Assembly (NCBI GenBank): GCA_963849325.1
Contig: CAWKHF010000012.1
Location: forward strand, 800,001-864,000
DNA length: 64,000 bases
Direction of reading: 5' to 3'
DNA from: an uncultured Planctomycetota bacterium
GTDB taxonomy: Bacteria > Planctomycetota > Planctomycetia > Gemmatales > Gemmataceae
The position numbers and the translations under genes are program-made. The notes beneath the pieces were generated by a model. The model saw only the letters and a program-made list of their open reading frames with translations. It was not told where the DNA came from and did no database searches. This document shows, one piece after another, positions 32,343 to 45,257 of the stretch (within the stretch, counting starts at the first letter, position 1; each line of letters opens with the position of its first letter).

Positions 32343-32416
32343 GTCCCCGTAGCTCAATTGGATAGAGCGTCGGCCTCCGGAGCCGAAGGTTACAGGTTCG
32401 ACTCCTGTCGGGGATA
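32343..32416 (+). tRNA. tRNA-Arg(CCG), canonical
   Basis: GTCCCCG acceptor, TAGCTCAATTGGATAGAGC D arm, TCGGC-CT CCG GA-GCCGA, GTTCGACTC; TATAAT upstream. Confidence 0.95.
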
Positions 32417-32510
32417 CTGAAAAACCGCTTCCGACGACCGAACGGGACCGGCTGTCAGGAGCTTCGGGCAAGGCGAATATCCCCCGAAGTTCTTGGAACC
32501 TAGGGTACCC

Positions 32511-33195: not shown

Positions 33196-33777
33196 ATGAG
33201 ACGCCATTTCTGCGAAGAAAGCGGCGCGAAGGTTCGCCGGCGGGGCGTGGCGGCGGTGGAATTCGCCCTTTGCTTGCCGCTGATCGTGCTGCTCATGCTC
33301 GGGGTCTGGGAGGTCGGCCGCATCGCCCAGGTGGCCAACATCCTCTCGAATGGTGCCCGCGAAGCCGCGCGCGACGCCTCCCTGGGACAGGACAATCTTC
33401 AGACCATTGCTTCCAATCAGCTCACCTACCTCCAGGGCGCGCTGTCGGGGGCATTCGGCCAGGGTCATTCAACCAGCATGCAGGCGCCGACGATCTCCTT
33501 GCCCGCGAACACCACCGGATACACCTGCTGGGACAATACCGCCAACCAGGAGCTGTTCACCATCACGTTCACGGACCTCACCACGCCCAGCGTCACCGAC
33601 CCGACGGCGATGCAGCAGCTCGATCACTATCAGATTGGCCTGCAGGTTCCGTATGCCAGTATCGGTTGGAATTCCCTGGCTCAGATTACGTCCGTTACCC
33701 GGATTTCCGTTGTCGTGGATTGGGTCTCCATGCGCGACGCCCCCTTCCAGATTTCGCCGGCGCTACCGGCCCAGTAA
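33196..33777 (+). CDS. tadE: TadE/TadG-like pseudopilin
   Basis: RRRG/VAAVEFAL prepilin motif, TM, GAREAAR. Confidence 0.85.
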   Translation: MRRHFCEESGAKVRRRGVAAVEFALCLPLIVLLMLGVWEVGRIAQVANILSNGAREAARDASLGQDNLQTIASNQLTYLQGALSGAFGQGHSTSMQAPTISLPANTTGYTCWDNTANQELFTITFTDLTTPSVTDPTAMQQLDHYQIGLQVPYASIGWNSLAQITSVTRISVVVDWVSMRDAPFQISPALPAQ

Positions 33778-33807
33778 CCTCTCCCGTGGACGCGAGGAGA
33801 ACAAGTC

Positions 33808-34257
33808 ATGGTTCGCGCACAGGCTTGCGGAAACCGACGCCGAGGCGCCACAGCGGTTGAGACCGCCGTGGTCCTGATTCCGCTGTTAATGTTTCTCTTT
33901 GGCATTTTTGAGTACGGCCGGTTCTTGATGGACTGGAACCTGCTCGATAATGCCACTCGGGAAGGCTGTCGATATGCCTTGGCGAACAACACGAATACCT
34001 CGATCAACGCGAATGTTCAAGCGGTCGTCACCTCTTACATGGCGGGGAGAGACGCGAGTTTCAGTAACTTCACCGTGACCGTCAGCGGGACGCACTCGGG
34101 CGTCTCCACTGCGGTCAACAGTTTAGCTCCCGGCGATCCGATCACCGTTACGGTCTCGGGGCAGTATCGGTTCATGAACATTATTCCGGTGATCTCCATG
34201 CCGAGCTTCGTTTCCTTGAGCAGTTCATCCACGATGATTTGCGAGGGAGGGACCTGA
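33808..34257 (+). CDS. tadE: TadE-like pseudopilin
   Basis: RRRG/ATAVETA, TM, ATREGCRYA. Confidence 0.85.
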   Translation: MVRAQACGNRRRGATAVETAVVLIPLLMFLFGIFEYGRFLMDWNLLDNATREGCRYALANNTNTSINANVQAVVTSYMAGRDASFSNFTVTVSGTHSGVSTAVNSLAPGDPITVTVSGQYRFMNIIPVISMPSFVSLSSSSTMICEGGT

Positions 34258-34383
34258 CAAATTTCTTGGGAGTCTTACGCTGCGGTGCCGGTACGGAAGG
34301 CCTTACCTTGCTGACTCCGCTGGCTAATCTCCCTTTGATCCTTTTGGAGTTTACAGCGCAGCCTGATGCGCGGAGAAGCGAAT

Positions 34384-37300
34384 ATGATGATTTCCAAACG
34401 GCCGTCCATTGCCCGATCCACTTGTCGCCGAGGGTCCGTCCTGCCCTTGCTGGCCCTTGCCCTCGTGGCCCTGATTGGCTGTGTGGCCCTGGCTGTCGAC
34501 GTGGCGATAATGACCATCGCCAAATCGCAGATCCAAAACGCCGCCGACGTAGCCGCGCTCACCGCCGCGCGCACGCTGACCGGAAATTCGGCAAGCAATT
34601 ATAATGAGAGCTCCGCCACGACGAACGCGCAGAACGCCGCCAGTTACAACCACGTCTTGGGTCAGTCGATTCAAACGTCGCAGCTCCAGCTATCCTACGG
34701 CACCTACGACTACGACCAGACCGCGCAGACCTTCAACGCCAATTTCCCACCGACGAGCGGCATGCCGCTGACCGCCGTTTCCGCGACCGTCACCTCGAGC
34801 AGTTTATCGGCCGCCTTTAGCACCGTCTTCGGAATCCAATTTCTCCCCAATGTCACCGCCACGGCCACGGCGGTCCATCGGCCGCGCGACATCGCCCTGG
34901 TCATGGATCTGTCCGGCTCGATGCGCATGGGCACCTGCCTCGGCTACGACTTTTATACCAGCTCACGCACCACGAACAACCCCGATACCCTCTACCCGAC
35001 ATTCGGACAGTATTCGTCCGGCAGCGCCGGCATGCAAGGCCCCAGCACCAATCAAACGTCCAGCTTCGATAACTACACGATCTCCCCGAGTAATACCACC
35101 GCTGCCAATTCCTCGTATTCCTTGACCTATGTGAACAACTTCTATCAAAACGCGGCCTATGCGAACACCTTGGTCCGCGCATTTGATTCGTATACCAGCA
35201 CGGACGGCGGGGTTACCTGGACCGCCCCCACTTCGGGGAGTCCGCAGCTGCCTCCCACCACGTACGCCTCGAAGCCGGGGGGAGACGTGCCTCTTTACAA
35301 GAATGGCAGCACGACGACTTATGCCACGAATGTCAACGACGTTGTGAACGGGACCACGCGGAACAAGTGGTGGGAGCTGGACGGTTACTCCGGTTGCACG
35401 AACGGTTCGTTCAACAATGCGGACCTGGGGACCAGTACCTACGCGAGCGGTTCCTTTAACGCTTATACGCAGGGTCCCGCCTACTACGGCAAGACCTTCT
35501 TCACCTGGCCCCCCGACCCGCGCCAGCCACTGACCACGGCGAACAACTCCACCCAGATCAATCAGTTCTTGCAAGATTTCGGCTACAGCACCAGCACGGA
35601 TTTCGCCAATGCCGCCTTCACGACCACGCTGGCGCAGAAAATATCGTCAACGAATAAAACCTCTATCTCGATCAATTCCGCGACACCTTTCCCGGTAAGC
35701 GGTCTTCCGACAACGTCGTTTCGTATTCTTGTCGGTTCGGAAGTCATGCTGGTAACGGCCGCATCGGGACCAGGGAACAAGACCTGGACCGTACAAAGGG
35801 GCATGGACGGGACCACAGCATCAACATACCCTGCGAACACGACGACGGTCAGTCTGTTGACCGGGCCACCCCTGTACGGGATCTATGGAGTCACCACGAC
35901 TTCGGGCAGCCAAAACTGGCCCTGGCCCAATGACAGTGGCACCACACTCAGCAATTACTTGACCAGCAAGGTATACGTGCCCGTTTCTTCCGGCGCTACC
36001 GCCCGTTTGCTCCAAACCACGGATGCGGTTTATCAGAAGATCATGCGCCTTTACAACTGGAACTACGTGGTCGATAACTACAACTCGGCGGGGAGCGGGA
36101 GCAGTTACCCCGGCACCACTCCCTGCGATTGGCGCATGCGCTTCTTCGGCACCAACGACAATACCAAGCTATTCAACTCTTCCGGGTTGTTGAACTTGCC
36201 GAGCAGTTCCACCTACACGATTAATTACAATGAGATCCTGCGCTGGATCGCCACCACGCCGAACCCCTTCCCGCAGCAGATGCGGGCGGGCCGCGTTAAG
36301 TTTTATGGATCCATCCCGACCCAGATCACGGGCAGTTGGCCCAGCTACGGCAGTACGGACCAGCAGTTCTGGAAAGAATTCATTGACTACGCGCTCGGCC
36401 TCCGGCAAACGAGCGCGACCAGCTACCAGGACATCAGCGCCATGGCCGGCTACGGCAGCGATTTCACCTGGGGAACTACGAAAACCAATTCTCCTCCTTC
36501 TGCCACGCAATACATGAATTATTCGGACAATCCTGCCCGCCCGCGGCTCCGCTTCTGGTTCGGTCCCATGAACATGGTCGATTATCTGCATAATTACAAT
36601 ATGGAGGAAAACGTCTCCGGCTATTATTTCCTTCAGCCAGGGGATACTTACGAGGCTCCGGTCTACACGGCCAAACAGGCCTACCTGGCCTCGATCAGCA
36701 CGATGCAGACCAACCATCCCAACGACTGGTTCACTACCGTTTGTTACAGCTGGCCTCGCGGTTCGTCGAATGGGACCGTGGCATCGAATATGGGTCAGGG
36801 GCGCTTCAATTGCGTGCGGTCCCCGCTCGGGCCAAATTACAGCTATGCCAGCGCCGCTCTCGTTTTCCCATTCTCCACCATCAACGCCGATGGTTCCGCC
36901 AATAGTACCGAGATCACTCCCTACGATACCGATCCTGCCACGAGCCAGGTTCCTTCGGCCAACTTCGTGGACACACCGCGCGCAGACGGAGATACCTGCT
37001 TCGCCATGTCGCTCATGCTCGCTTACAACCAGTTCGCCACCACGTCGCCCTCGGATGGCACCTTACGCTCCTTCGTCACGTCCACCCCCATCACTTTCCC
37101 GACGGGCATGGCGGGAGGAATGGGGCGCAAAGGAGCCCAGAAGGTCATCATCTTTGAAACGGATGGCCTGGCGAATACCTCCGCGACGGCCTCTCTGGTG
37201 AACATGGGATCGTACAAGTATTACAAGATCCGCTATGACATGAATAAGCCGAGCTCCAGCGAATACCCGACGGTCGGCGTATCCGTCATCAATGACTCCA

Positions 37301-37599
37301 ATGTCTTGAATCAGATTAATACCCTGGTCCAACAGCTCGCGAGCGATTACGGCACTTCGAGGAACCCCTTTCGGTTGTACGCCGTCGGATTCGGCCCTGT
37401 GTTCCAGGGTCCAAACGCCAGCTCGGCGTCGCAAACATTGCAAAACATGCAGTATTATGCCGGCACTCAGAGCAGTCCTTCCACAGCCTTGCCGCCCGCT
37501 CAAATCATTACGGGAACGGACTCCCAGATGTCGGCGAACATGAACACCACCTTCACGAACATCTTACAAAATGGAGTGCAAATCGCCCTGACCAAGTGA
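34384..37599 (+). CDS. tadG: large TadG-like pilus-associated adhesin with a split vWA domain
   Basis: RRG/SVLPLLAL, QNAADVAALTAA, DLSGSM MIDAS motif, later IFETDG and LYAVGFG; rich in S/T/N/Y. Confidence 0.8.
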   Translation: MMISKRPSIARSTCRRGSVLPLLALALVALIGCVALAVDVAIMTIAKSQIQNAADVAALTAARTLTGNSASNYNESSATTNAQNAASYNHVLGQSIQTSQLQLSYGTYDYDQTAQTFNANFPPTSGMPLTAVSATVTSSSLSAAFSTVFGIQFLPNVTATATAVHRPRDIALVMDLSGSMRMGTCLGYDFYTSSRTTNNPDTLYPTFGQYSSGSAGMQGPSTNQTSSFDNYTISPSNTTAANSSYSLTYVNNFYQNAAYANTLVRAFDSYTSTDGGVTWTAPTSGSPQLPPTTYASKPGGDVPLYKNGSTTTYATNVNDVVNGTTRNKWWELDGYSGCTNGSFNNADLGTSTYASGSFNAYTQGPAYYGKTFFTWPPDPRQPLTTANNSTQINQFLQDFGYSTSTDFANAAFTTTLAQKISSTNKTSISINSATPFPVSGLPTTSFRILVGSEVMLVTAASGPGNKTWTVQRGMDGTTASTYPANTTTVSLLTGPPLYGIYGVTTTSGSQNWPWPNDSGTTLSNYLTSKVYVPVSSGATARLLQTTDAVYQKIMRLYNWNYVVDNYNSAGSGSSYPGTTPCDWRMRFFGTNDNTKLFNSSGLLNLPSSSTYTINYNEILRWIATTPNPFPQQMRAGRVKFYGSIPTQITGSWPSYGSTDQQFWKEFIDYALGLRQTSATSYQDISAMAGYGSDFTWGTTKTNSPPSATQYMNYSDNPARPRLRFWFGPMNMVDYLHNYNMEENVSGYYFLQPGDTYEAPVYTAKQAYLASISTMQTNHPNDWFTTVCYSWPRGSSNGTVASNMGQGRFNCVRSPLGPNYSYASAALVFPFSTINADGSANSTEITPYDTDPATSQVPSANFVDTPRADGDTCFAMSLMLAYNQFATTSPSDGTLRSFVTSTPITFPTGMAGGMGRKGAQKVIIFETDGLANTSATASLVNMGSYKYYKIRYDMNKPSSSEYPTVGVSVINDSNVLNQINTLVQQLASDYGTSRNPFRLYAVGFGPVFQGPNASSASQTLQNMQYYAGTQSSPSTALPPAQIITGTDSQMSANMNTTFTNILQNGVQIALTK

Positions 37600-37631: not shown

Positions 37632-38405
37632 TCACGGCTTCGTGGAGACGTGGCCGTCGATCGCCTGCAACACCTCGTCCGGCGAGAGCCGGGCGATCAC
37701 CTCGGGGGAACGATACAGCCAGCGCACGGTGCCGTCCTGGTCCACGAGGATCGTCGTTGGCGCGTCGGTATCGCCCCCATCGGGTGCCGAATGCGGATGA
37801 ATGACTCCCGCCGCCTCGGACAGACCGCGCTGCTCATCGGCGAGCACGAGCAGGTGCGGGAAGTCCGCCTGTGTCTTCCCGGCGTCCTCGAGTCCTTCCA
37901 CGGAAACCACCAGGACGCGGACGTTCCGCTGGGCGAAGTCTTCGTGCCGACGTTCGAGCTGACCTAGCTCGATCATGCAAAAGGGTCACCAGCGGCCGCG
38001 GAAGAAGACCAGCACGCTGTTCTGCTCGCCGATCAGGTTTTGCTGCGTGAACGGGGTGCCGTCCGCCCGCGCCGACGCGAATGGGGGAAAGGGCTGCCCA
38101 ACAACGATCGGCCCTGTGTACGCCGGCAGTCTCGCCGCTAGCAGGAACGTCCACGCGGCGCCGGCAAGCAGCGTCACCAAGACGAGGGCAAGTACACGCC
38201 AGACGGAACGCCTCTGCCAGAGCGAGACGACCACGAAAACCAGGCCGACGGTTGCCATGATCGGCACGTACCAGGGTGCCGTCAGGCGCTGCGCCTGGAT
38301 TTGAAGGACGTAGCCGATTACACCCAGGGCGGCCAAAGTGAGGCCCAGGGCCAGGAAGAGGCGGCCGGGCGAGCGACGCGGTGCGACAGCGGATGAAGTA
38401 GTCAT
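37632..38405 (-). CDS. membrane-anchored AhpC/TSA (peroxiredoxin-like) protein with in-frame UGA, predicted selenocysteine in a UxxC motif
   Basis: ORFs 37986-38405 and 37632-37976 share a frame, joined by ...VFFRGRW-TGA-PFCMIEL...; three N-terminal TMs; downstream VVS, LAD and PTTILVD motifs. Confidence 0.85.
37954..37972 (-). promoter_or_regulatory. candidate bacterial SECIS hairpin
   Basis: mRNA UCGAGCU-AGGUC-AGCUCGA, 7-bp stem starting 13 nt after the UGA. Confidence 0.6.
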
Positions 38406-38476
38406 GTCGTCATTCTATGACAGGGGCGGTTGGCGAGGGAGGCCGCACATCCGCTGCGTCCCAGGGTGGAAGGAAG

Positions 38477-38548
38477 AGTGTCCGGCGGGAGTCGCACCCG
38501 CCTATCCGACGCGGCAGGTCGGTGCCTCGGCTGCTCGGCCACGGACAC
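38477..38548 (-). tRNA. tRNA-Gly(GCC), array member, atypical T loop (TGCGA)
   Basis: GTGTCCG/CGGACAC acceptor, CCGAC-CT GCC GC-GTCGG. Confidence 0.75.
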
Positions 38549-38553
38549 AAGAG

Positions 38554-38623
38554 CAAGGACGGAAGGAGTCGAACCCTCGGCGCCTGTTTTGGAGGCAGGC
38601 TGCTCACCCAGGAGCACGCCCTT
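38554..38623 (-). tRNA. tRNA-Trp(CCA), array member, short D arm
   Basis: AAGGGCG/CGTCCTT acceptor, CCTGC-CT CCA AA-ACAGG, GGTTCGACTCC. Confidence 0.75.
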
Positions 38624-38633
38624 GTCGAACCAG

Positions 38634-38706
38634 CTGCCCCGGCAGGACTCGAACCTGCAACCGTCTCGTTAACAGCGAGCCGCTCTACCGTTTGAGCTAC
38701 AAGGCA
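38634..38706 (-). tRNA. tRNA-Asn(GTT), array member
   Basis: TAGCTCAAACGGTAGAGC D arm, CTCG-CT GTT AA-CGAG, GTTCGAGTC. Confidence 0.9.
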
Positions 38707-38726
38707 AGCAGACAGAAATGCCTCAG

Positions 38727-38799
38727 AGACGCCGGCAGGAGTCGAACCTGCTTCGATGTCGGGTTGCGGCCGACCGCCTGGCCGTCCGGCCCCGGCGTC
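38727..38799 (-). tRNA. tRNA-Cys(GCA), array member, C33
   Basis: GACGCCG/CGGCGTC acceptor, U discriminator, GTCGG-CC GCA AC-CCGAC, GTTCGACTC. Confidence 0.75.
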
Positions 38800-38811
38800 A
38801 TAACAGACAAG

Positions 38812-38884
38812 GGCCGGCGGTGGGACTCGAACCCACTTGGTCCGCGTTACGAAGGCGGTGCCCGGCCCGTCGAGCATCGCCGGC
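38812..38884 (-). tRNA. tRNA-Thr(CGT), array member
   Basis: GCCGGCG/CGCCGGC acceptor, CCGC(C)-TT CGT AA-(C)GCGG, GTTCGAGTC. Confidence 0.7.
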
Positions 38885-38893
38885 TTTGGTCAG

Positions 38894-38962
38894 CAGCCAG
38901 TGCTGGTGTCGAGCCAACTGGACCGAGGTTCAGAGCCTCCGTCCCCTGCCGAGGGCCTGGCT
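38894..38962 (-). tRNA. tRNA-Gln(CTG), array member, degenerate
   Basis: AGCCAG/CTGGCT acceptor, GAGG-CT CTG AA-CCTC, T loop CTCGACA. Confidence 0.55.
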
Positions 38963-38972
38963 GACGTGCGAG

Positions 38973-39045
38973 GGTGGCCGGCGGGAGTCGAACCCGCACA
39001 ACCCCGGTTCACAGCCGGGTCTCGCTGCCGCTTGAGTTCGGCCAC
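38973..39045 (-). tRNA. tRNA-His(GTG), array member, no encoded G-1
   Basis: GTGGCCG/CGGCCAC acceptor, C73, CCCGG-CT GTG AA-CCGGG, GTTCGACTC. Confidence 0.8.
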
Positions 39046-39047
39046 AG

Positions 39048-39119
39048 TGCTTCAACCTGGAATCGAACCAGGAACTCGGCCTTCGCAGGACCGCGTGATG
39101 TCCCTTTCACCATCGAAGC
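39048..39119 (-). tRNA. tRNA-Arg(GCG), array member
   Basis: GCTTCGA/TTGAAGC acceptor, CGGTC-CT GCG AA-GGCCG, GTTCGATTC. Confidence 0.8.
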
Positions 39120-39126
39120 AACACAG

Positions 39127-39198
39127 TACCCCGGCCAGGAATCGAACCTGGACCTGCTCCTTCGGAGGGAGCCATGATGTCCCTTTCACCACCAGGGC
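39127..39198 (-). tRNA. tRNA-Arg(CCG), array member
   Basis: GCCCTGG/CCGGGGT acceptor, GCTCC-CT CCG AA-GGAGC, GTTCGATTC. Confidence 0.8.
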
Positions 39199-39210
39199 AA
39201 CACGAACCAG

Positions 39211-39293
39211 TGACCAGGGAGGGACTTGAACCCTCACGCCGCGGTGGGCACGGTCTTCTGAGGACCGCGTGTCTGCCATTCCACCACCTGGCC
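39211..39293 (-). tRNA. tRNA-Leu(CAG), array member, long variable arm
   Basis: GGTGGAATGGCAGACAC D arm, CGGTC-CT CAG AA-GACCG, GTTCAAGTC. Confidence 0.9.
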
Positions 39294-39305
39294 ATTTACC
39301 AACAG

Positions 39306-39378
39306 TGGACCGTGGAGGGAGTTGAACCCTCATTTGCCGGGTGCAAGCCGACCGTCTTCCCCGTTAGACGACACGCCC
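39306..39378 (-). tRNA. tRNA-Ala(TGC), array member, one-base acceptor bulge
   Basis: G3.U70 retained, GTCGG-CT TGC AC-CCGGC, GTTCAACTC. Confidence 0.75.
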
Positions 39379-39392
39379 GGGAGAAAAAGCAG

Positions 39393-39465
39393 TGGCCCCG
39401 GTGGGGATCGAACCCACATCGCCCTGTTTAAGAGACAGGTGCTCCGCCAATTGAGCTACAAGGCC
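39393..39465 (-). tRNA. tRNA-Lys(CTT), array member
   Basis: TAGCTCAATTGGCGGAGC D arm, CCTGT-CT CTT AA-ACAGG, GTTCGATCC. Confidence 0.9.
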
Positions 39466-39475
39466 ATTCGGGCAG

Positions 39476-39555
39476 CGTGTCGGGCAGGAGTTGAACCTGC
39501 ACAGCGAATGCGGGTGGGTTACAGCCACTTGGGCTCGCCAGTGCCCAGCCGACAC
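39476..39555 (-). tRNA. tRNA-Tyr(GTA), first gene of the array
   Basis: GTGTCGG/CCGACAC acceptor, GTGG-CT GTA AC-CCAC, variable arm, GTTCAACTC. Confidence 0.8.
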
Positions 39556-39574
39556 GTCTGGTCCGTACATCTTG

Positions 39575-39602
39575 TAGACGTAGGCACCCGGCCGGAGGTT
39601 CA
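39575..39602 (-). promoter_or_regulatory. candidate ECF-sigma promoter of the tRNA array
   Basis: TGAACC-N16-CGTCTA ending 19 nt before tRNA-Tyr. Confidence 0.55.
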
Positions 39603-39822
39603 CGGATCCAAGCGAGATTTTTCGAGAAGCAACGGGGGCCACATGGGCAAAGTGGCAAAGCGCGTGCGTCTCCATCGGATGTACCGGATAAGCCTGTTGC
39701 GCCGGAGAGGAGTCAATTCCGTCCTTCCTCCATGCCGATAAAGAGTGATGGGCCGCGCGATCTGCCCGCATTGGTCCCGAGACGGGGAAGGCGCGGAAAG
39801 CATCGGCTCGGGAGGGAACGTC

Positions 39823-41249
39823 ATGCTGTTCTGCTCGTTGGAATTCCTGTTCTTCTTCAGCGCCATTCTGCTCGTCTACTGGCTCATCCCCGGCAAGACG
39901 GCTCGCATCTGGTTGCTGCTGGTGGCCAGTTTCTGCTTCTACGCGGCGTGGAACACCTGGCTGGCCTTGCTCATCAGCGTCACGACGGTCATGGATTATT
40001 TCCTCGCCCTGGGCATCGACCGCGGCACCTCGGAGGTCCGGCGCAAGCTGCTCCTGGCCGTCAGTCTCGTGGTCAACCTCGGCGTGTTGTGCTATTTCAA
40101 GTACGCCAACTTCTTTCTCGATTCGCTATCCGAGATTCTGCACGCGCTCGGCTCGTCGGCATCGCTGCCGCTGCTGGAAGTGATCCTTCCGGTCGGTATC
40201 TCCTTCTACACCTTCGAGGCCATCAATTACACCGTGGACGTCTACCGTCGCAAGGCGCCCGCGGAGCGGAACCTGGGGCACTTCATGCTGTTCATCCTGT
40301 TCTTTCCTCATCTGGTGGCCGGGCCGATCGTCCGCGCCCGCGACTTTTTGCCGCAGATCAAGCGGGCCAAGCGCTTCAGCTGGCCGCGCATGCAGCTGGG
40401 GCGCAGATCTTCCTCATGGGGCTGTTCAAGAAGTTGGCCATCGCCGATCGCATGGCCCTCTACGTCGATCCGGTGTTCCACGACCCGTTGTCGTTCCACT
40501 CGAAAGCGGTGTGGTGGGCGGTGCTGGCCTACGCCCTGCAAATTTACTGCGACTTCTCCGGCTACACCGACATGGCCATCGGCACGGCGCACATGCTCGG
40601 CTACAAACTGGCCGAGAACTTCAACATCCCGTACATCTCGGCCAACGTCTCGGAGTTCTGGCGGCGCTGGCACATCTCGCTGTCGAGTTGGCTGCGCGAT
40701 TATCTGTTCATCCCACTGGGCGGCAGTCGCGGCGGCACCTGGAAGACCAACCGCAACCTGCTGATCACGATGACGCTGGGCGGCCTGTGGCACGGAGCGA
40801 GCTGGACGTTCGTCTTCTGGGGCGTGCTGCACGGCCTGCTGCTGATCGGGCACAAAGCGTTCCAGGGATTTTGCACGAAACGGCCGATGCTCGAGCGCGT
40901 ACTGCGCTCGGCGCCGGGGACGTTGCTGCGCATGGCGCTGACGTTTGCCAGTGTGTGCGTCGGTTGGGTCTTCTTCCGGGCGACAACCTTCGCCATCGCC
41001 GCCGGTGTGCTGCGACGCCTGGTCAGCTTCACTCGTGCCGGGGCGCCGACGCCGATGCCGATCACCGGCTTCGTCCTGACAATCGTGCTGGTGGTGCTGT
41101 GCCATTTGGTTCGCCGCTTCGACCTGTGGCGGCGATGGCAGCCGAGCCTGCCGGCCCCCGTGCTCGGCTTCAGCTACGCCGTGGCGGTGACGCTGGCGCT
41201 GATGCTCGCCCCATCGGGGACCAAGCCGTTCATCTACTTCCAGTTCTGA
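39823..41249 (+). CDS. MBOAT O-acyltransferase (AlgI/DltB-like), copy 1; frameshift near 40400
   Basis: LPVGISFYTFE, FFPHLVAGPIVR, YCDFSGYTDMA, FWRRWHISLS, GLWHGA, PFIYFQF. Confidence 0.9.
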
Positions 41250-41266
41250 GAAGAGATCGACCGAAT

Positions 41267-42364
41267 ATGAATGGTCGTCAAAGTCGCATTTTGCGAAGGT
41301 CGCGGCCCGCCCTGTTGTGGTCCTTGTTCTTCTTTCTCGGCGGTCAGGTGATCGCGGGACGTCTCCTCTATCAGCGCCATCCGGACCTGTTCGATCCGGA
41401 ATTCCACCTCCGGCTGCACGACCTGGAATCGCGGTTGGCGGAAGTGCCCGGCCGGCCGCTGGCGCTGGCCGTGGGCAGCTCGCGCATCGCCTGCGGACTG
41501 CGGCCGGCCTGGGCCGACGACGCGCACACACCAGGCGGAACGGAGGCCGTTCTGTTCAACTTCGGCATGTTGGGAGGAGGGCCCGTCCGCGAGCGGATGG
41601 TGTTGCACCGTTTGCTCCGCACCGGGGTGCGGCCGAAATGGTTATTCGTTGAGGTGTGGGCACCAATGCTCCTGCAGGAAGGCTTCTTCCACGAGGAACC
41701 GCGCATCTTCCGCCAGGAGTTGTACTGGCCGGACCTCACCGTGATCGCACGCCTGTATGACCGCACGGGCGAATCGCTGCGCCGGCTGCTGGAAACGACC
41801 CTGGCGCCGCTGGTCCATTACCGTCAACCTCTACTGGCGCGCTACGCGGACTGCCTGATGCCGCCGTCCTTTTGGGCCGAGCAGAATCGAGAGGGCTGGG
41901 CGGGGCTAGACGACTCGGGATGGTTGACGCCCCACGAGCGCCCCAATGCGGCGGGCTTCGCCCTCCTGCTGGAGTATGGAAAGAGTGTGACCAAGCCGCT
42001 GCTGGACGACTTCCGCGTCAGCGCCATTTCGGATCGGGCATTGCGCGATCTACTGGCGGAATGCCAGGCCAACGGCATCCAGCCCATCTTGTTCCTCATG
42101 CCCGAACCGGAGGCGCTGCGGAGCTGGTATCCGCCGGCGACCCGCGCTGCGCTGACGGCCTACCTGCGGTGCCTGGCCAGGGATGGCCGGATGCCGGTGA
42201 TCGACGCCGCGGCCTGGTGCGGCGATGACGAATTCGCGGACTCCTGCCATCTGACATCCGCCGGCGCCCGCTCCTTCAGTGCGCGTTTCGGCCGCCAGGT
42301 TTACTGCCCGCTAATCGCCGGTCAACCTCTGCCGTGCGACGTTCTACTCCGCGATTCGCCGTAG
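41267..42364 (+). CDS. SGNH/DUF1574-like periplasmic partner of the MBOAT
   Basis: N-terminal TM, VGSSR, FNFG, FADSCHL..GA. Confidence 0.7.
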   Translation: MNGRQSRILRRSRPALLWSLFFFLGGQVIAGRLLYQRHPDLFDPEFHLRLHDLESRLAEVPGRPLALAVGSSRIACGLRPAWADDAHTPGGTEAVLFNFGMLGGGPVRERMVLHRLLRTGVRPKWLFVEVWAPMLLQEGFFHEEPRIFRQELYWPDLTVIARLYDRTGESLRRLLETTLAPLVHYRQPLLARYADCLMPPSFWAEQNREGWAGLDDSGWLTPHERPNAAGFALLLEYGKSVTKPLLDDFRVSAISDRALRDLLAECQANGIQPILFLMPEPEALRSWYPPATRAALTAYLRCLARDGRMPVIDAAAWCGDDEFADSCHLTSAGARSFSARFGRQVYCPLIAGQPLPCDVLLRDSP

Positions 42365-42381
42365 TAGGAAACCTTCTTTCG

Positions 42382-42431
42382 GAGCCGGAAGCGTAAGCGA
42401 AGGAAGATCCCTTCGCTTACGCTTCCGGCTC
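42382..42431. repeat. REP-like palindrome
   Basis: gagccggaagcgtaagcgaagg...ccttcgcttacgcttccggctc. Confidence 0.9.
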
Positions 42432-42595
42432 GGAGCGACGTTCACTTGCTCGGGCACGAGGGGCCGACCATACGGGTTGTCCCGGCGCGAACGATCGTGC
42501 CGATTTTTCTGAAGACGAGGCCGGGCGGATGCCGATTTTCTCGGTCGGAGGTGTCTCCTCCTCCGCGGTCTCCTCGCTCACGACAGGACGTTGTC

Positions 42596-44052
42596 ATGTT
42601 GTTCAGTGCGGCCACTTTTCTCTTTCTGTTTTTGCCGGTGCTGCTCCTGCTGTACTTCCTCTGTCCGCGCCGCTTGCGCAACTTGCTGCTCTTGACGGCC
42701 AGCTTGCTGTTCTACGTCTGGGGCGAGAAGACCTACGTTTTCGTCCTGCTCGCCTCCATCGCCGTCAATTACACGCTTGGCCTGTGGCTGGACGGCCTGC
42801 GCACGGCACGAGGCCGGCGTTTGGCGATCGCCCTGGCGGTCTTCGCCAACCTCGGCCTGCTGGCCACCTTCAAGTATGCCGTCTTCCTGCTGCAAAACTG
42901 CAATGTCGCGCTGGCCGCTCTGCATCTGGCTCCGCTGCCGGTGCCGAACATCCACCTGCCGCTGGGCATCTCCTTCTTCACCTTTCATGCCCTCTCCTAC
43001 GTCATCGACGTCTACCGCGGCGAGGTGCGGGCGCTGAAAGACCCGATCGCGTTCGCCCTGTACATTTCCTTCTTCCCGCAGAGTATCGCCGGACCCATCG
43101 TCCGCTATAGCGACCTGGCGACGCAGCTGGTACGCCGCCGCTTCTTCCGCGCGGGCTTCGCCGAGGGGGTACGGCGCTTCATCTTCGGGTTGTCGAAGAA
43201 GATGTTGATTGCCAATACGCTGGCCCTGCCGGCCGACGCCATTTTCGGCCTGCCGCCCGAAGGATTGTCGGCCGGGTTGGCCTGGCTGGGCATTACCTGC
43301 TATACGCTGCAAATCTACTTCGACTTCTCCGGCTACTCGGACATGGCCATCGGCCTGGCCAGAATGTTCGGCTTCGATTTCAAGGAGAACTTCAACTACC
43401 CCTACGTGTCGCGCTCGGTCACGGAGTTTTGGCGGCGTTGGCACATGTCGCTGTCGAGCTGGTTCCGCGATTACCTGTACATCCCGCTGGGCGGCAACCG
43501 CCGTGGGACGATCCACACCTATTTCAACCTGCTGGCGGTGTTTTTTCTGTGCGGCCTGTGGCACGGGGCGAGCTGGGCGTTCGTGGGCTGGGGCCTGTAT
43601 CACGGCGGCTTCCTGGTGCTGGAGCGCACTCGGCCGGGCGCTGGCTCGACGCGGCGCCGGCGCCGTTGCGGCACGCTTACGCCCTGCTGGCGGTGATGGT
43701 CGGCTGGGTGTTCTTCCGGGCGACGACGTTTGGCCATGCCGCGTCCTTCGTGGCCGCGATGTTTGGCCTGGGTTCGGACGGCGCCGTCGAGTACGTACCC
43801 GCCATCTACTTGCAGACGGACGTGGTGCTGGCGCTGATCGCCGGCGCGATCAGCTCGGCGCCGCTATTGACGTGGCTGCGGCGCGTCCGCCCGGGCGACC
43901 TGGCGGCCGCACTGCGGCGGCCCGCTTTGGCGCAGGCACTGGAAGCGGTGTTCGCCGGCGCCTCGGTGGCGGCGCACGCGGTACTGCTGCTGGCCTCGAC
44001 CACGATGCTGGCCGCCGGGACCTACAACCCGTTCATTTATTTCCGCTTCTAG
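42596..44052 (+). CDS. algI: MBOAT O-acetyltransferase (AlgI-like), copy 2; frameshift near 43635
   Basis: LPLGISFFTF, YFDFSGYSDMA, ENFNYPY, FWRRWH, GLWHGA, YNPFIYFRF. Confidence 0.85.
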
Positions 44053-44091
44053 GACCGCTCGCGGCTCGGTCCCCGATCGGAAGGAGGCGCC

Positions 44092-45257
44092 GTGGACACA
44101 GGCACTCGTATCCGCACCATCGCCGACTGGGCCGTGATTGCCTTGTTCCTGGCGGCGACCGGATTGCCGTTGGCCGGCGCCTTTCTGCCCGACCCGCACA
44201 ACCAGGCGGCCAACGACCTGCGCCCGCTGGCTTCCCTGCCGCCGCTGCGGCCCAAGCGCAGTGTCCTGATCGCTTTCCCCACGCAGTTCGAGAAATACTG
44301 GGAGGACCACTTCGGTTTCCGCGGCCCGCTCATCTACCTGCTGAACGTGGTCAAGGTACGCGGACTGCACGCCTCGACGGCGGCGAACGTCCTGCTGGGA
44401 CGGCCATCCTGGTTGTTCTACACTCATCTCCCCGCTGGCATGGATTACAACGCCGTGCGGCCCTTCACGGCCGACGAGCTGGACCACTGGCGCCGCGTCC
44501 TGGAGCGTCGCCGCGATTGGTTGCAGCGGCGCGGCTGCAAGTACGTCCTCTTCATTCCCCCCGATAAACAGACCATCTACCCCGAATATCTCGATCCGGT
44601 TTATCGCTCAAGGCACGACCAATCGCGGTTGGACCAGTTGCTCGCCCACCTGCGGAGCTGTGGTTCGAGCGTGGAGGTGCTGGACATCCGACAACCGATG
44701 CGGGCCGCCAAGGAGCGCGAGCGGCTGTACCATCAGACCGACTCGCACTGGAACGACCACGGAGCGTTCCTCGGCTATGAGCATCTGACCGGCGTGCTGG
44801 CCCGATGGTTCCCAGCCGTCCGGCCGGTGCCGCGCTCGGGCTTCGTGGAGGAGACGGCCGAGAAACGCGGCGGCGACCTGGCGACGATGGTTTACCTGGC
44901 CGAGCGGCTGCCCGAGCAAATGCTGAACCTCGTGCCGCGCTCGCCGCGGCGCTGGCGTCCGTCCGCACAAGGCGTTGTCGCGCGGCGCGGAAGACCGCCG
45001 CCTTTTACGCGGCCGCCGCCACCGAATGCGACGACGCCAACCTGCCCCGCGCCGTCATCTTTCACGACTCGTTCGCCCTGGCCCTGCGACCGTTCCTGTC
45101 CGAGCACTTCCGCCGTACCGCCTACGTCTGGGACGACGCCTTCCACCAGGATGTCGTCGAACGCGAACGTCCCAACGTCGTCATTCAGGAGATGCTGGAG
45201 CGCAAATTGGGGTTTGTGATACCCAACGACATCGAGGACGCCGAGCCGCTGAAATGA
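44092..45257 (+). CDS. AlgJ/AlgX-like SGNH O-acetyltransferase; frameshift near 44985
   Basis: DHFGFR, WLFY, PDKQTIYPE, TDSHWNDHGA, HDSF. Confidence 0.8.

Follow-up and report, generated by a model that had tools for sequence, protein, structure and literature searches.

Does a compact block of 13 tRNA genes in the genome of an uncultured planctomycete serve everyday translation, or is it a second, accessory set with a control of its own? The block lies on the minus strand of a 64,000-nt stretch of DNA (the window; positions 800,001 to 864,000 of contig CAWKHF010000012.1 in assembly GCA_963849325.1) from a member of the family Gemmataceae. The genome, G000, comprises 8.16 Mb in 14 contigs, with 65% G+C and an estimated completeness of 84.7%. 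We conclude that the block is very probably accessory rather than housekeeping and that it belongs to the long accessory tRNA arrays, or L-arrays. Taken together, the data are best explained by a fragment of such an array that has a dedicated promoter and forms part of a conditional regulon, an explanation that we regard as likely.

With default settings, ARAGORN placed 12 minus-strand tRNA genes at 38476-39555. All 12 scored at least 29 bits, the gathering score of Rfam family RF00005, in a sensitive search of the whole genome (range, 29.2 to 62.5 bits), and just 8 of them were listed when the fast filters of Rfam were used. The units are given below in 5'-to-3' order, together with the sequence motif that precedes them and a stand-alone gene used for comparison. 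All tRNA genes were called by ARAGORN, and scores are for RF00005.

39575..39603, minus strand: promoter-like motif GTGAACC-N16-CGTCTA, with AAC in the -35 and CGT in the -10 position; its end is 20 nt upstream of tRNA-Tyr
39475..39555, minus strand: tRNA-Tyr(GTA), 38.1 bits; 12-nt variable region, discriminator G
39392..39465, minus strand: tRNA-Lys(CTT), 62.3 bits
39307..39378, minus strand: tRNA-Ala(TGC), 49 bits; irregular acceptor stem
39210..39293, minus strand: tRNA-Leu(CAG), 51 bits; class II, A at position 37 (A37)
39126..39198, minus strand: tRNA-Arg(CCG), 55.4 bits; A37
39047..39119, minus strand: tRNA-Arg(GCG), 54.9 bits; anticodon without a stand-alone copy, Arg(ACG) elsewhere
38972..39045, minus strand: tRNA-His(GTG), 48.2 bits; no encoded G at position -1 (T instead)
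38895..38965, minus strand: Gln(CTG)-like unit, called by ARAGORN at -ps90 only; compact D arm, no U8
38811..38884, minus strand: tRNA-Thr(CGT), 33.9 bits
38726..38799, minus strand: tRNA-Cys(GCA), 37.2 bits; C33
38633..38706, minus strand: tRNA-Asn(GTT), 62.5 bits; intron-less
38553..38623, minus strand: tRNA-Trp(CCA), 29.2 bits, just at the cutoff; aberrant D arm
38476..38548, minus strand: tRNA-Gly(GCC), 49 bits; T-loop TGCGACT, G55
32343..32417, plus strand: stand-alone housekeeping tRNA-Arg(CCG) outside the array, 69.8 bits

The 13 units share one orientation, and no anticodon order is repeated, making the array non-periodic. They occupy 1,080 nt, or about 12 units per kb, with spacers of 1 to 19 nt by the ARAGORN coordinates; genome-wide, ARAGORN made 92 calls in 8.16 Mb. 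An earlier note on this DNA, made from its letters alone, had described 13 tandem minus-strand tRNA genes in this order with short spacers and no encoded CCA. Twelve of them are now supported by both ARAGORN and RF00005 and the 13th by conservation, and the spacers and the lack of CCA were borne out as well. None of the 13 units encodes CCA, and neither does any of the 50 stand-alone tRNAs of the genome; because it holds genome-wide, the missing CCA was rejected as a trait specific to the array.

The Gln-like unit matched neither the Rfam tRNA model, even at an E value of ≤1, nor any other Rfam family. The stretch is kept in all four of the aligned homologous arrays, with the anticodon CTG in three of them and TTG, also a Gln anticodon, in the array of G006. 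Given this conservation of a Gln anticodon in four of four arrays, we accept 38895-38965 as a putative, highly divergent Gln tRNA-like unit, on weaker evidence than the other 12. The Ala unit contains a G3.G70 mismatch in the acceptor stem in the ARAGORN register; in an alternative reading made by inspection, a bulged G would yield G3:U70 and A73.

Are these tRNAs the only ones of their kind in the cell? Stand-alone genes exist for 12 of the 13 anticodons as well, and a stand-alone Arg(ACG) covers the remaining one, Arg(GCG). The array unit scored below its stand-alone counterpart on RF00005 in 11 of 11 scorable comparisons (for example, 33.9 versus 73.4 bits for Thr and 29.2 versus 69.0 bits for Trp), the Gln-like unit being undetected, and for each amino acid there is a stand-alone tRNA whose covariance score is higher. 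G000 contains three further arrays, which the earlier note does not mention, with 13 tRNA genes at C4:433741-435175 (C denotes a contig), 7 at C1:515629-516193, and 3 at C5:1106033-1106278. Combined, the four arrays comprise 36 to 37 tRNA genes that represent 19 amino acids; Met and initiator tRNAs are absent.

The block could instead be a housekeeping tRNA operon needed for normal growth. Before introns were considered, intact Asn(GTT), Leu(CAA), and Leu(TAA) genes were found by ARAGORN in the arrays only, and with the genome 84.7% complete, some stand-alone genes could be missing. The earlier note had named sole genomic copies as the sign of a housekeeping operon, and for Asn this seemed to be the case until the native gene was found. 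An intron-less orthologue in the same-genus genome G002 led to a tRNA-Asn(GTT) gene on the minus strand of C3 (~92896-93640). A 664-nt group I intron (RF00028, 56.6 bits, E value 3e-13), which contains a LAGLIDADG-like reading frame, interrupts this gene between anticodon positions 35 and 36. After splicing, this tRNA is 72.7% identical to the array Asn, and the ARAGORN impression that the array gene was the sole Asn gene of the genome was rejected. Likewise, the native tRNA-Leu(UAA) on the minus strand of C2 (~959700-960010), mis-called as Ser by ARAGORN, is apparently interrupted by an insertion of 216 nt behind the first base of the anticodon; the insertion scored 35.1 bits on RF00028, below the cutoff of 50. 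We take the position of this insertion to be that of the classic Leu(UAA) intron of cyanobacteria and plastids.

The arrays thus add to the native tRNA genes and do not replace them. The intron-containing native Asn and Leu(UAA) genes and the higher-scoring stand-alone tRNA for every amino acid argue against a housekeeping operon, as do the lack of Met and initiator tRNAs from the arrays and a promoter type unlike that of the stand-alone tRNA genes (see below). Furthermore, among the 10 same-genus genomes, many of them incomplete assemblies, a match longer than ~260 nt was found only in G006. We therefore consider a housekeeping role very unlikely.

Several other tRNA genes of G000 were noted in the course of these comparisons. 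The Asn-like tRNA at C5:716836-716909 was considered as the native Asn locus and rejected: its anticodon is GCT, and relatives share the downstream gene only. It is a class I tRNA (RF00005, 60.3 bits) with a body 85% identical to that of the array Asn. Together with ~430 nt downstream, it has a 71% identical paralogue at C6:234141-234585, where ARAGORN calls an 88-nt "Ala(AGC)". A well-formed tRNA at C2:189639-189710 (RF00005, 52.7 bits) carries a TTA anticodon and would decode TAA, a stop codon; it is preceded by a TTGACG-17-CACAAT site, and no other tRNA of the genome shares more than 64% identity with its body. A solo array-type Leu(CAG), 94% identical to the window unit and likewise with A37, lies outside any array at C7:207738-207824.

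The array units form a lineage separate from the stand-alone tRNAs. They are 57 to 77% identical to the stand-alone copies with the same anticodon in the genome (Arg-GCG being compared with Arg-ACG), whereas their identity to array units elsewhere, other Gemmataceae genera included, reaches 98.6%; for most, an array unit with 82 to 98% identity exists in one or more distant genomes. The array Tyr, for example, is 95.1% identical to the units of G016 and G006 and 58% identical to the stand-alone Tyr, and the array Thr is 89 to 96% identical to the units of G016, G006, and G022 and 67.1% identical to the stand-alone Thr(CGT). The Ala unit is 93 to 97% identical to those of G016, G006, G022, and G014, and the array Leu(CAG) is 68.8% identical to the stand-alone Leu(CAG) on C10. 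The array Arg(CCG) and the copy at 32343 share 65.3% identity, in agreement with the strong difference between these two genes pointed out in the earlier note.

This lineage appears to be under selection to maintain its folds. A formal covariation test was applied to 2 of the 13 units, Lys and Gly. In the Lys unit, compared over five arrays, 99% of the stem cells were paired, and seven pairs had changed on both sides; in the Gly unit, compared over six arrays, the values were 99.2% and 11 pairs. Neither result was reached by any of 500 shuffles, and pairing dropped to 36 to 54% when the partner strand was slid. Paired changes were also found in the anticodon stem of Trp among G000, G016, G006, and G017. 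Such compensatory changes point to selection on the cloverleaf.

The two lineages also differ at specific positions of the anticodon loop. Among tRNAs with G36, which read CNN codons, A37 is found in 10 of 10 array genes, whereas G37 is found in 11 of 14 stand-alone genes; one of the three exceptions is the solo array-type Leu (C7:207740). In Arg, G34 in the array unit corresponds to A34 in the stand-alone gene. The 7-nt anticodon loops of Lys, Asn, Thr, and Trp are identical in the array and stand-alone genes.

Some features of this particular copy weigh against an array that is functional throughout. Cys has C33 in the window array alone, with T33 in five of five related array units, and Tyr has G73 in the window array alone, with A73 in five of five. 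The base at position -1 of His is T in the window array and in G001, as opposed to G in the stand-alone His and in the arrays of G016, G006, and G022, and G55 of Gly is common only to the window array and G006. These four positions matter for the structure or charging of a tRNA. The changes, at positions conserved among arrays, suggest relaxed selection on part of this copy.

One could go further and view the block as a decaying remnant, a once-regulated L-array fragment that has lost its leader and is drifting toward pseudogenes, with little or no contribution to the tRNA pool. The four changes listed above would fit such decay, as would the low RF00005 scores, the undetectable Gln-like unit, and the loss of the leader and attenuator found at sister arrays (see below). 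There is also a precedent: 3 of the 26 genes of the Anabaena array behave as pseudogenes, according to the available text of PMC8421152. On the other hand, the stems remain 99% paired with compensatory changes across genera, the close similarity of most units to array units of distant genomes is retained, and the promoter-like motif is intact before all four arrays. Moreover, since G55 of Gly is shared with G006 and the His without G-1 with G001, both of them other species, these changes have persisted and do not represent recent damage. A remnant is, in our view, rather unlikely.

Nor do the units look like tRNA-like RNAs that act outside translation, for example, as substrates of tRNA-dependent envelope or peptide synthesis or as regulatory RNAs. 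Many units do break core tRNA rules. However, the anticodons are conserved or changed synonymously (CTG and TTG of Gln), and 19 amino acids are represented; by inspection, the discriminator bases mostly fit the textbook rules for the cognate synthetases. We find a role of this kind extremely improbable, even though the possibility of noncanonical functions has been raised for Anabaena in the part of PMC8421152 available to us.

What controls the array? The motif GTGAACC-N15-17-CGTCTA was defined from the upstream regions of three G000 arrays, the fourth array being independent. Across both strands of the 8.16-Mb genome, it has five matches, four of which precede the four arrays on the array strand, 20, 43, 51, and 230 nt from the first tRNA. 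Every match in 101,683 nt of related loci was likewise located upstream of an array (G016, G006, G007, and G001). In G137, it precedes an array of nine or more genes at a distance of 224 nt, and forms with one mismatch precede the arrays of the G022 and L053 species. Across nine genomes, the motif was found 20 to 313 nt upstream of the first array tRNA, exact in seven and with one mismatch in two.

The stand-alone tRNAs have a different type of upstream sequence. None of the 48 examined had the array motif at 12 or more of 13 positions, whereas 22 of the 48 had TTGACA-N16-18-TATAAT at 9 or more of 12 positions within 150 nt, as opposed to 2.2% of 4,000 random windows. The stand-alone Arg(CCG) at 32343 is an example, with a promoter-like TTGCCT-16-TATAAT site 45 nt upstream. 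The best σ70-like site upstream of the window array matched at 6 of 12 positions, and a simple σ70 scan of this region returned no promoter-like sites. The solo array-type Leu at C7:207738 matched the array motif at 8 of 13 positions at best and thus lacks the array promoter motif. Neither direct or palindromic repeats nor operators were found upstream of the window array in 39556-39731. The σ70 scan also gave three terminator-like sites, all on the other strand, compared with 1.5 expected from shuffles. Overall, GTGAACC-N16-CGTCTA probably serves as the promoter of the arrays.

The motif also carries AAC at -35 and CGT at -10, the hallmark of promoters recognized by extracytoplasmic function (ECF) sigma factors, as given in the available text of PMC8103513. 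Recognition by an ECF-type sigma factor is suggested by this likeness, although we would put it at slightly less than an even chance. Sigma factors are numerous in this organism: 95 Sigma70_r2 matches in G000 constitute an unusually large repertoire, and several of them lie in open frames of 600 to 1,500 residues.

Several observations speak against this view of the motif or limit its reach. A simple base-composition estimate predicts about five genome-wide matches to the bare motif by chance, and the argument therefore rests on where the matches are located and not on their number. The fifth genomic match, between rplK and rplA, is not conserved, with just 2 of 23 loci of relatives reaching 11 of 13 positions there, and was treated as a chance occurrence. 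The only Arg(CCT) gene of the genome (C2:10047-10119, 48.4 bits) has an 11-of-13 match, GCGAACC-N-CGTCTT, 52 nt upstream, the best among the 48 stand-alone tRNA genes, indicating that the promoter type may not be exclusive to the arrays. No tRNA is found within 1.5 kb of the strict-pattern matches in G087, G101, G121, and G024; the genes downstream of them are, by their translations, those of a MATE-like transporter and an RRM protein as well as prfB, and one match falls within an archease-like frame. Since a reversed-pattern control also gave two matches, these tRNA-less sites do not establish a wider regulon. Finally, no motif with 12 or more of 13 positions was found within 450 nt upstream of any of the 95 Sigma70_r2 loci (11 of 13 in two of them, which is the background level); the autoregulation usual for ECF sigma factors is therefore not seen. 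Not all ECF groups autoregulate, as stated in the part of PMC8103513 at hand.

Some of the sister arrays appear to have a second level of control. The C4 array (leader at C4:433484-433740) and six related arrays (G022, L053, G137, G016, G006, and G007) have alignable leaders of 220 to 310 nt. Six of the seven leaders contain a frame of 33 to 35 codons whose TGA stop falls within a conserved GTGACACC box; the C4 frame comprises 52 codons when counted from the furthest ATG. The C termini of the leader peptides are alike (HPPRW, YPRRL, SPLRQ, HPLRL, YPLRQ, and YRLRL). Base pairing is possible between the GTGACACC box and GGTGTCAC, the latter being part of a 13-bp GGCCAGG...CCTGGCC hairpin with a T run after it. 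In predicted minimum-energy folds, two of the three leaders examined adopted the terminator hairpin, and the remaining one adopted the competing pairing. The arrangement looks like a translation-sensing attenuator. The C4 leader matched no Rfam family at an E value of ≤1, and the leader terminator pattern was absent from all 400 planctomycete genomes sampled from other families.

The window array has no leader peptide, palindrome, or terminator attenuator, and its Tyr gene begins 20 nt after the motif; this counts against a conditional regulon that includes the locus. The case for an inducible window array is built on the non-σ70, ECF-like motif, together with the attenuator that precedes sister arrays and not the window array itself, and conditional expression would follow if the motif acts as these features suggest.

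Where did the block come from? A DNA search of 40 related genomes gave some match in 37 (38 of 41 counting G000), mostly of the length of a single tRNA. Long matches were found in G016, which belongs to another genus (929 nt at 79% identity), and in G006, of the same genus (~910 nt at 77%); the G022 array matched in two pieces of 499 and 358 nt at 79 to 82%. Matches of at least 900 nt were thus present in 2 of the 40 relatives, plus G022 in two pieces, many of the relatives being incomplete assemblies. The arrays of G016, G006, and G022 have 20 to 25 genes and a common core order, Tyr-Lys-Ala-Leu...Thr-Cys-(Phe)-Asn-Trp-Gly, as well as blocks equal to the C5 and C1 arrays of G000. The comparison of gene order with other planctomycete arrays, which the earlier note had proposed, thereby revealed a core order common to the window array and these three. 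For the Arg(GCG)-His pair, by contrast, the counterpart is in G001, where Arg(ACG) and His form a block of two genes (89% identity over 150 nt). Because the core order is shared with longer arrays but the Arg-His pair resembles the G001-type block, the window array is best viewed as a mosaic fragment of a larger, fluid family.

The distribution of this family may be patchy. Among the 185,579 species of the collection searched, four other records, titled Planctomycetota, Gemmatales, and Gemmataceae (two records), contain a 24-mer from the Gln-like unit. An ARAGORN "tRNA-Stop(tta)" in L053 proved to be a mis-registered Asn(GTT), 93.2% identical to the window Asn. Array flanks differ between genomes; however, synteny within the genus is broken every few kb anyway and many assemblies are incomplete, so that differing flanks are no proof of horizontal transfer. 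The C1 array shares a DAGK-family neighbor with the G007 array, which speaks for vertical descent at C1. Isoacceptor duplicates elsewhere in the genome, a divergent lineage that extends across genera, the small number of relatives with long matches, and a promoter-like motif of its own all uphold the proposal, made in the earlier note, that the block is an accessory second set.

The neighborhood of the array provided few further clues. Its 3' side is occupied by genes of Tad-type pseudopilins on the plus strand (33196-37599) and by a pair of small open reading frames (ORFs) without Pfam matches, and on its 5' side is an acyltransferase operon of the MBOAT/AlgX type (Pfam), divergently read from 39732. 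Pfam found no integrase or phage domains in the 18 ORFs between 30.6 and 47.7 kb, in line with the absence of such genes remarked on in the earlier note, and none of the 17 Phage_integrase matches of the genome is on the contig of the array. No nuclease or toxin genes flank the array. Among 47 ORFs around seven arrays, no shared neighbor genes were detected by Pfam, save the DAGK-family gene at the C1 and G007 arrays. A search for an empty insertion site was also unsuccessful: the block to the left of the array (37632-38435), the TadG-like gene, and the MBOAT operon are unlinked in same-genus genomes, with no tRNA adjoining. With these elements scattered among relatives, no clean insertion site can be demonstrated either way.

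Three further features are recorded here for their own sake. The MBOAT plus AlgX-like operon (39732-45219 in the window) has at least four paralogous copies in the genome, including those at C10:183450, C5:1155539-1159371, and C7:226611 of G000, and many in same-genus genomes. A PSCyt1 domain, a planctomycete marker, is encoded in the window (Pfam). A palindromic repeat of ~65 nt, forming a long GC-rich hairpin, lies directly downstream of the C1 and C5 arrays and was found by blastn in both orientations on at least nine contigs.

A phage origin of the array was not supported by searches of INPHARED and IMG/VR. INPHARED gave single-tRNA matches only, which covered at most 12% of the query. In IMG/VR, a 25-mer of the Leu unit led to one contig with 43.7% GC whose tRNAs are 60 to 78% identical to those of G000, and a second unit pattern had no match.

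These searches bear on the idea that the array is a countermeasure against tRNA-targeting nucleases, as employed in phage defense or by contact-dependent toxins and bacteriocins, for which the divergent bodies and loops would be poor substrates; the same has been proposed for arrays of phages and mycobacteria. The systematic differences from the stand-alone tRNAs in the anticodon loops and stems, among them the replacement of G37 by A37 in 10 of 10 genes and of A34 by G34 in Arg, would suit this purpose. A Phage_integrase gene with an adjoining HTH_17 gene is located 4.7 kb from the G022 array, and mycobacterial array units have been termed a putative antidefense system in the available text of PMC12803027. 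Yet no nuclease, toxin, or phage gene flanks the window array, the phage databases hold no related array among the matches found, and Lys, Asn, Thr, and Trp share their 7-nt anticodon loops with the stand-alone copies. We judge this explanation to be improbable, more so than decay.

Is the array transcribed? Contigs from three soil metatranscriptome runs, each from a different study, cover array units at 90 to 100% identity. One of them covers the Gly unit without differences, and a 244-nt contig spans Arg-Leu-Ala (39124-39361). Two points reduce the weight of these matches as signs of expression: the contigs stem from relatives and possibly from contaminating DNA, and no public sequencing run held more than 0.10 of the sampled words, that is, none comes from this organism. 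The flanks of the array were uncovered in the four runs compared, which is uninformative, as the contigs come from relatives.

How does the locus compare with known systems? L-arrays have been reported in Planctomycetes, among other phyla, in the available text of PMC8421152 (Santamaria-Gomez et al., 2021). Several of the features by which that source recognizes them are found here: a single orientation, spacing compatible with cotranscription, a length beyond accretion, a non-periodic order, and isodecoder redundancy. The window locus is a real array of the L-array type, of a kind already known in Planctomycetes, with a control region that differs from that of Anabaena. The trn operon of Anabaena sp. 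PCC 7120 has a σ70-type promoter, and a repressor binds 9-nt direct repeats over its -10 box (PMC8421152, as far as available); the repressor is TrcR (PMC10272220, likewise in part).

Both loci are long, same-strand, non-periodic, supernumerary arrays with isodecoder redundancy and no new anticodons, and both have some aberrant units; the G000 array, like that of Anabaena, also seems to have a patchy distribution and regulation apart from the housekeeping tRNAs. They differ in that G000 has an ECF-like AAC/CGT motif with no direct or palindromic repeats upstream of the window array, and in that the G000 set is distributed among four places on the chromosome, every one of which has a motif copy of its own. 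Pfam detected neither a homing endonuclease nor an rtcB gene among the 18 ORFs beside the window array. Induction and charging have been demonstrated in Anabaena and are putative in G000.

In the survey of Tran et al. (2016; PMC4758250, available in part), an array unit is defined as a region with at least 20 tRNA genes at a density of at least two per kb, and a few arrays are reported in Planctomycetes. The window locus resembles these units in its high density (12 per kb), its redundant core isoacceptors, and its history of rearrangement, deletion, and duplication. With 13 genes, it falls short of 20; the related arrays of G016, G006, G022, and G021 reach 20 to 26. The arrays of mycobacteria and mycobacteriophages (PMC5966550 and PMC12803027, in the text available) are also accessory and sporadic, but they are found on phages, plasmids, and mobile islands, whereas the window array has no nearby mobile genes and no phage counterpart. 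A search of the full-text literature, with the supplementary species lists of the surveys outside its scope, found no paper on Gemmataceae tRNA arrays or their control.

We favor the following explanation. The locus is a co-oriented block of 13 supernumerary tRNA genes that are probably cotranscribed, and it would represent a mosaic fragment of an L-array family that circulates in Gemmataceae and is split over four loci in G000. Transcription most likely starts from the dedicated promoter GTGAACC-N16-CGTCTA at 39603-39575, common to all four arrays and to related ones. The AAC/CGT form suggests an alternative sigma factor of the ECF type, under whose control the spare set would be turned on in a particular situation as a single regulon. 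Individual tRNAs would subsequently be released from the precursor and CCA added posttranscriptionally, as for all tRNAs of the genome, and the products might be charged and used in translation. Backing up translation under stress, when housekeeping tRNAs have been cleaved or are uncharged, the role put forward in the earlier note, is conceivable for such arrays, but we hold it only tentatively.

A more specific and unlikely version of this explanation would have the four arrays act together as an "emergency decoding" regulon under a single sigma factor, that is, as a parallel set free of the modifications and features that the housekeeping set needs. With A37 in place of G37, methylation by TrmD would not be required; with G34 in place of A34 in Arg, deamination by TadA would not be required; and without CAT-anticodon tRNAs, there would be no need for lysidine. 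The arrays also contain intron-less Asn and Leu(UAA) genes, the native counterparts of which need self-splicing. If this version is true, an ECF-type sigma factor would activate the set when the normal tRNAs are not correctly modified or spliced or do not stay intact, and the largest array would have an additional, ribosome-sensing leader.

Long accessory tRNA arrays are widespread, and the Anabaena array alone has been studied functionally. The control of L-arrays, the functionality of their tRNAs, and whether they add to or replace native genes are named as open questions in the available text of PMC8421152. On the last of these, the arrays of G000 provide an answer for one genome, as described above. 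On the first, they point to a second and apparently different control logic for L-arrays, with a private, promoter-like AAC/CGT motif before each fragment of a split array and a putative leader-peptide attenuator on some copies. One motif, four loci, and a defined, divergent set of tRNAs offer handles with which this logic may be tested, and the A37/G37 difference could be of interest to those who seek natural tRNA sets unlike the host's own.

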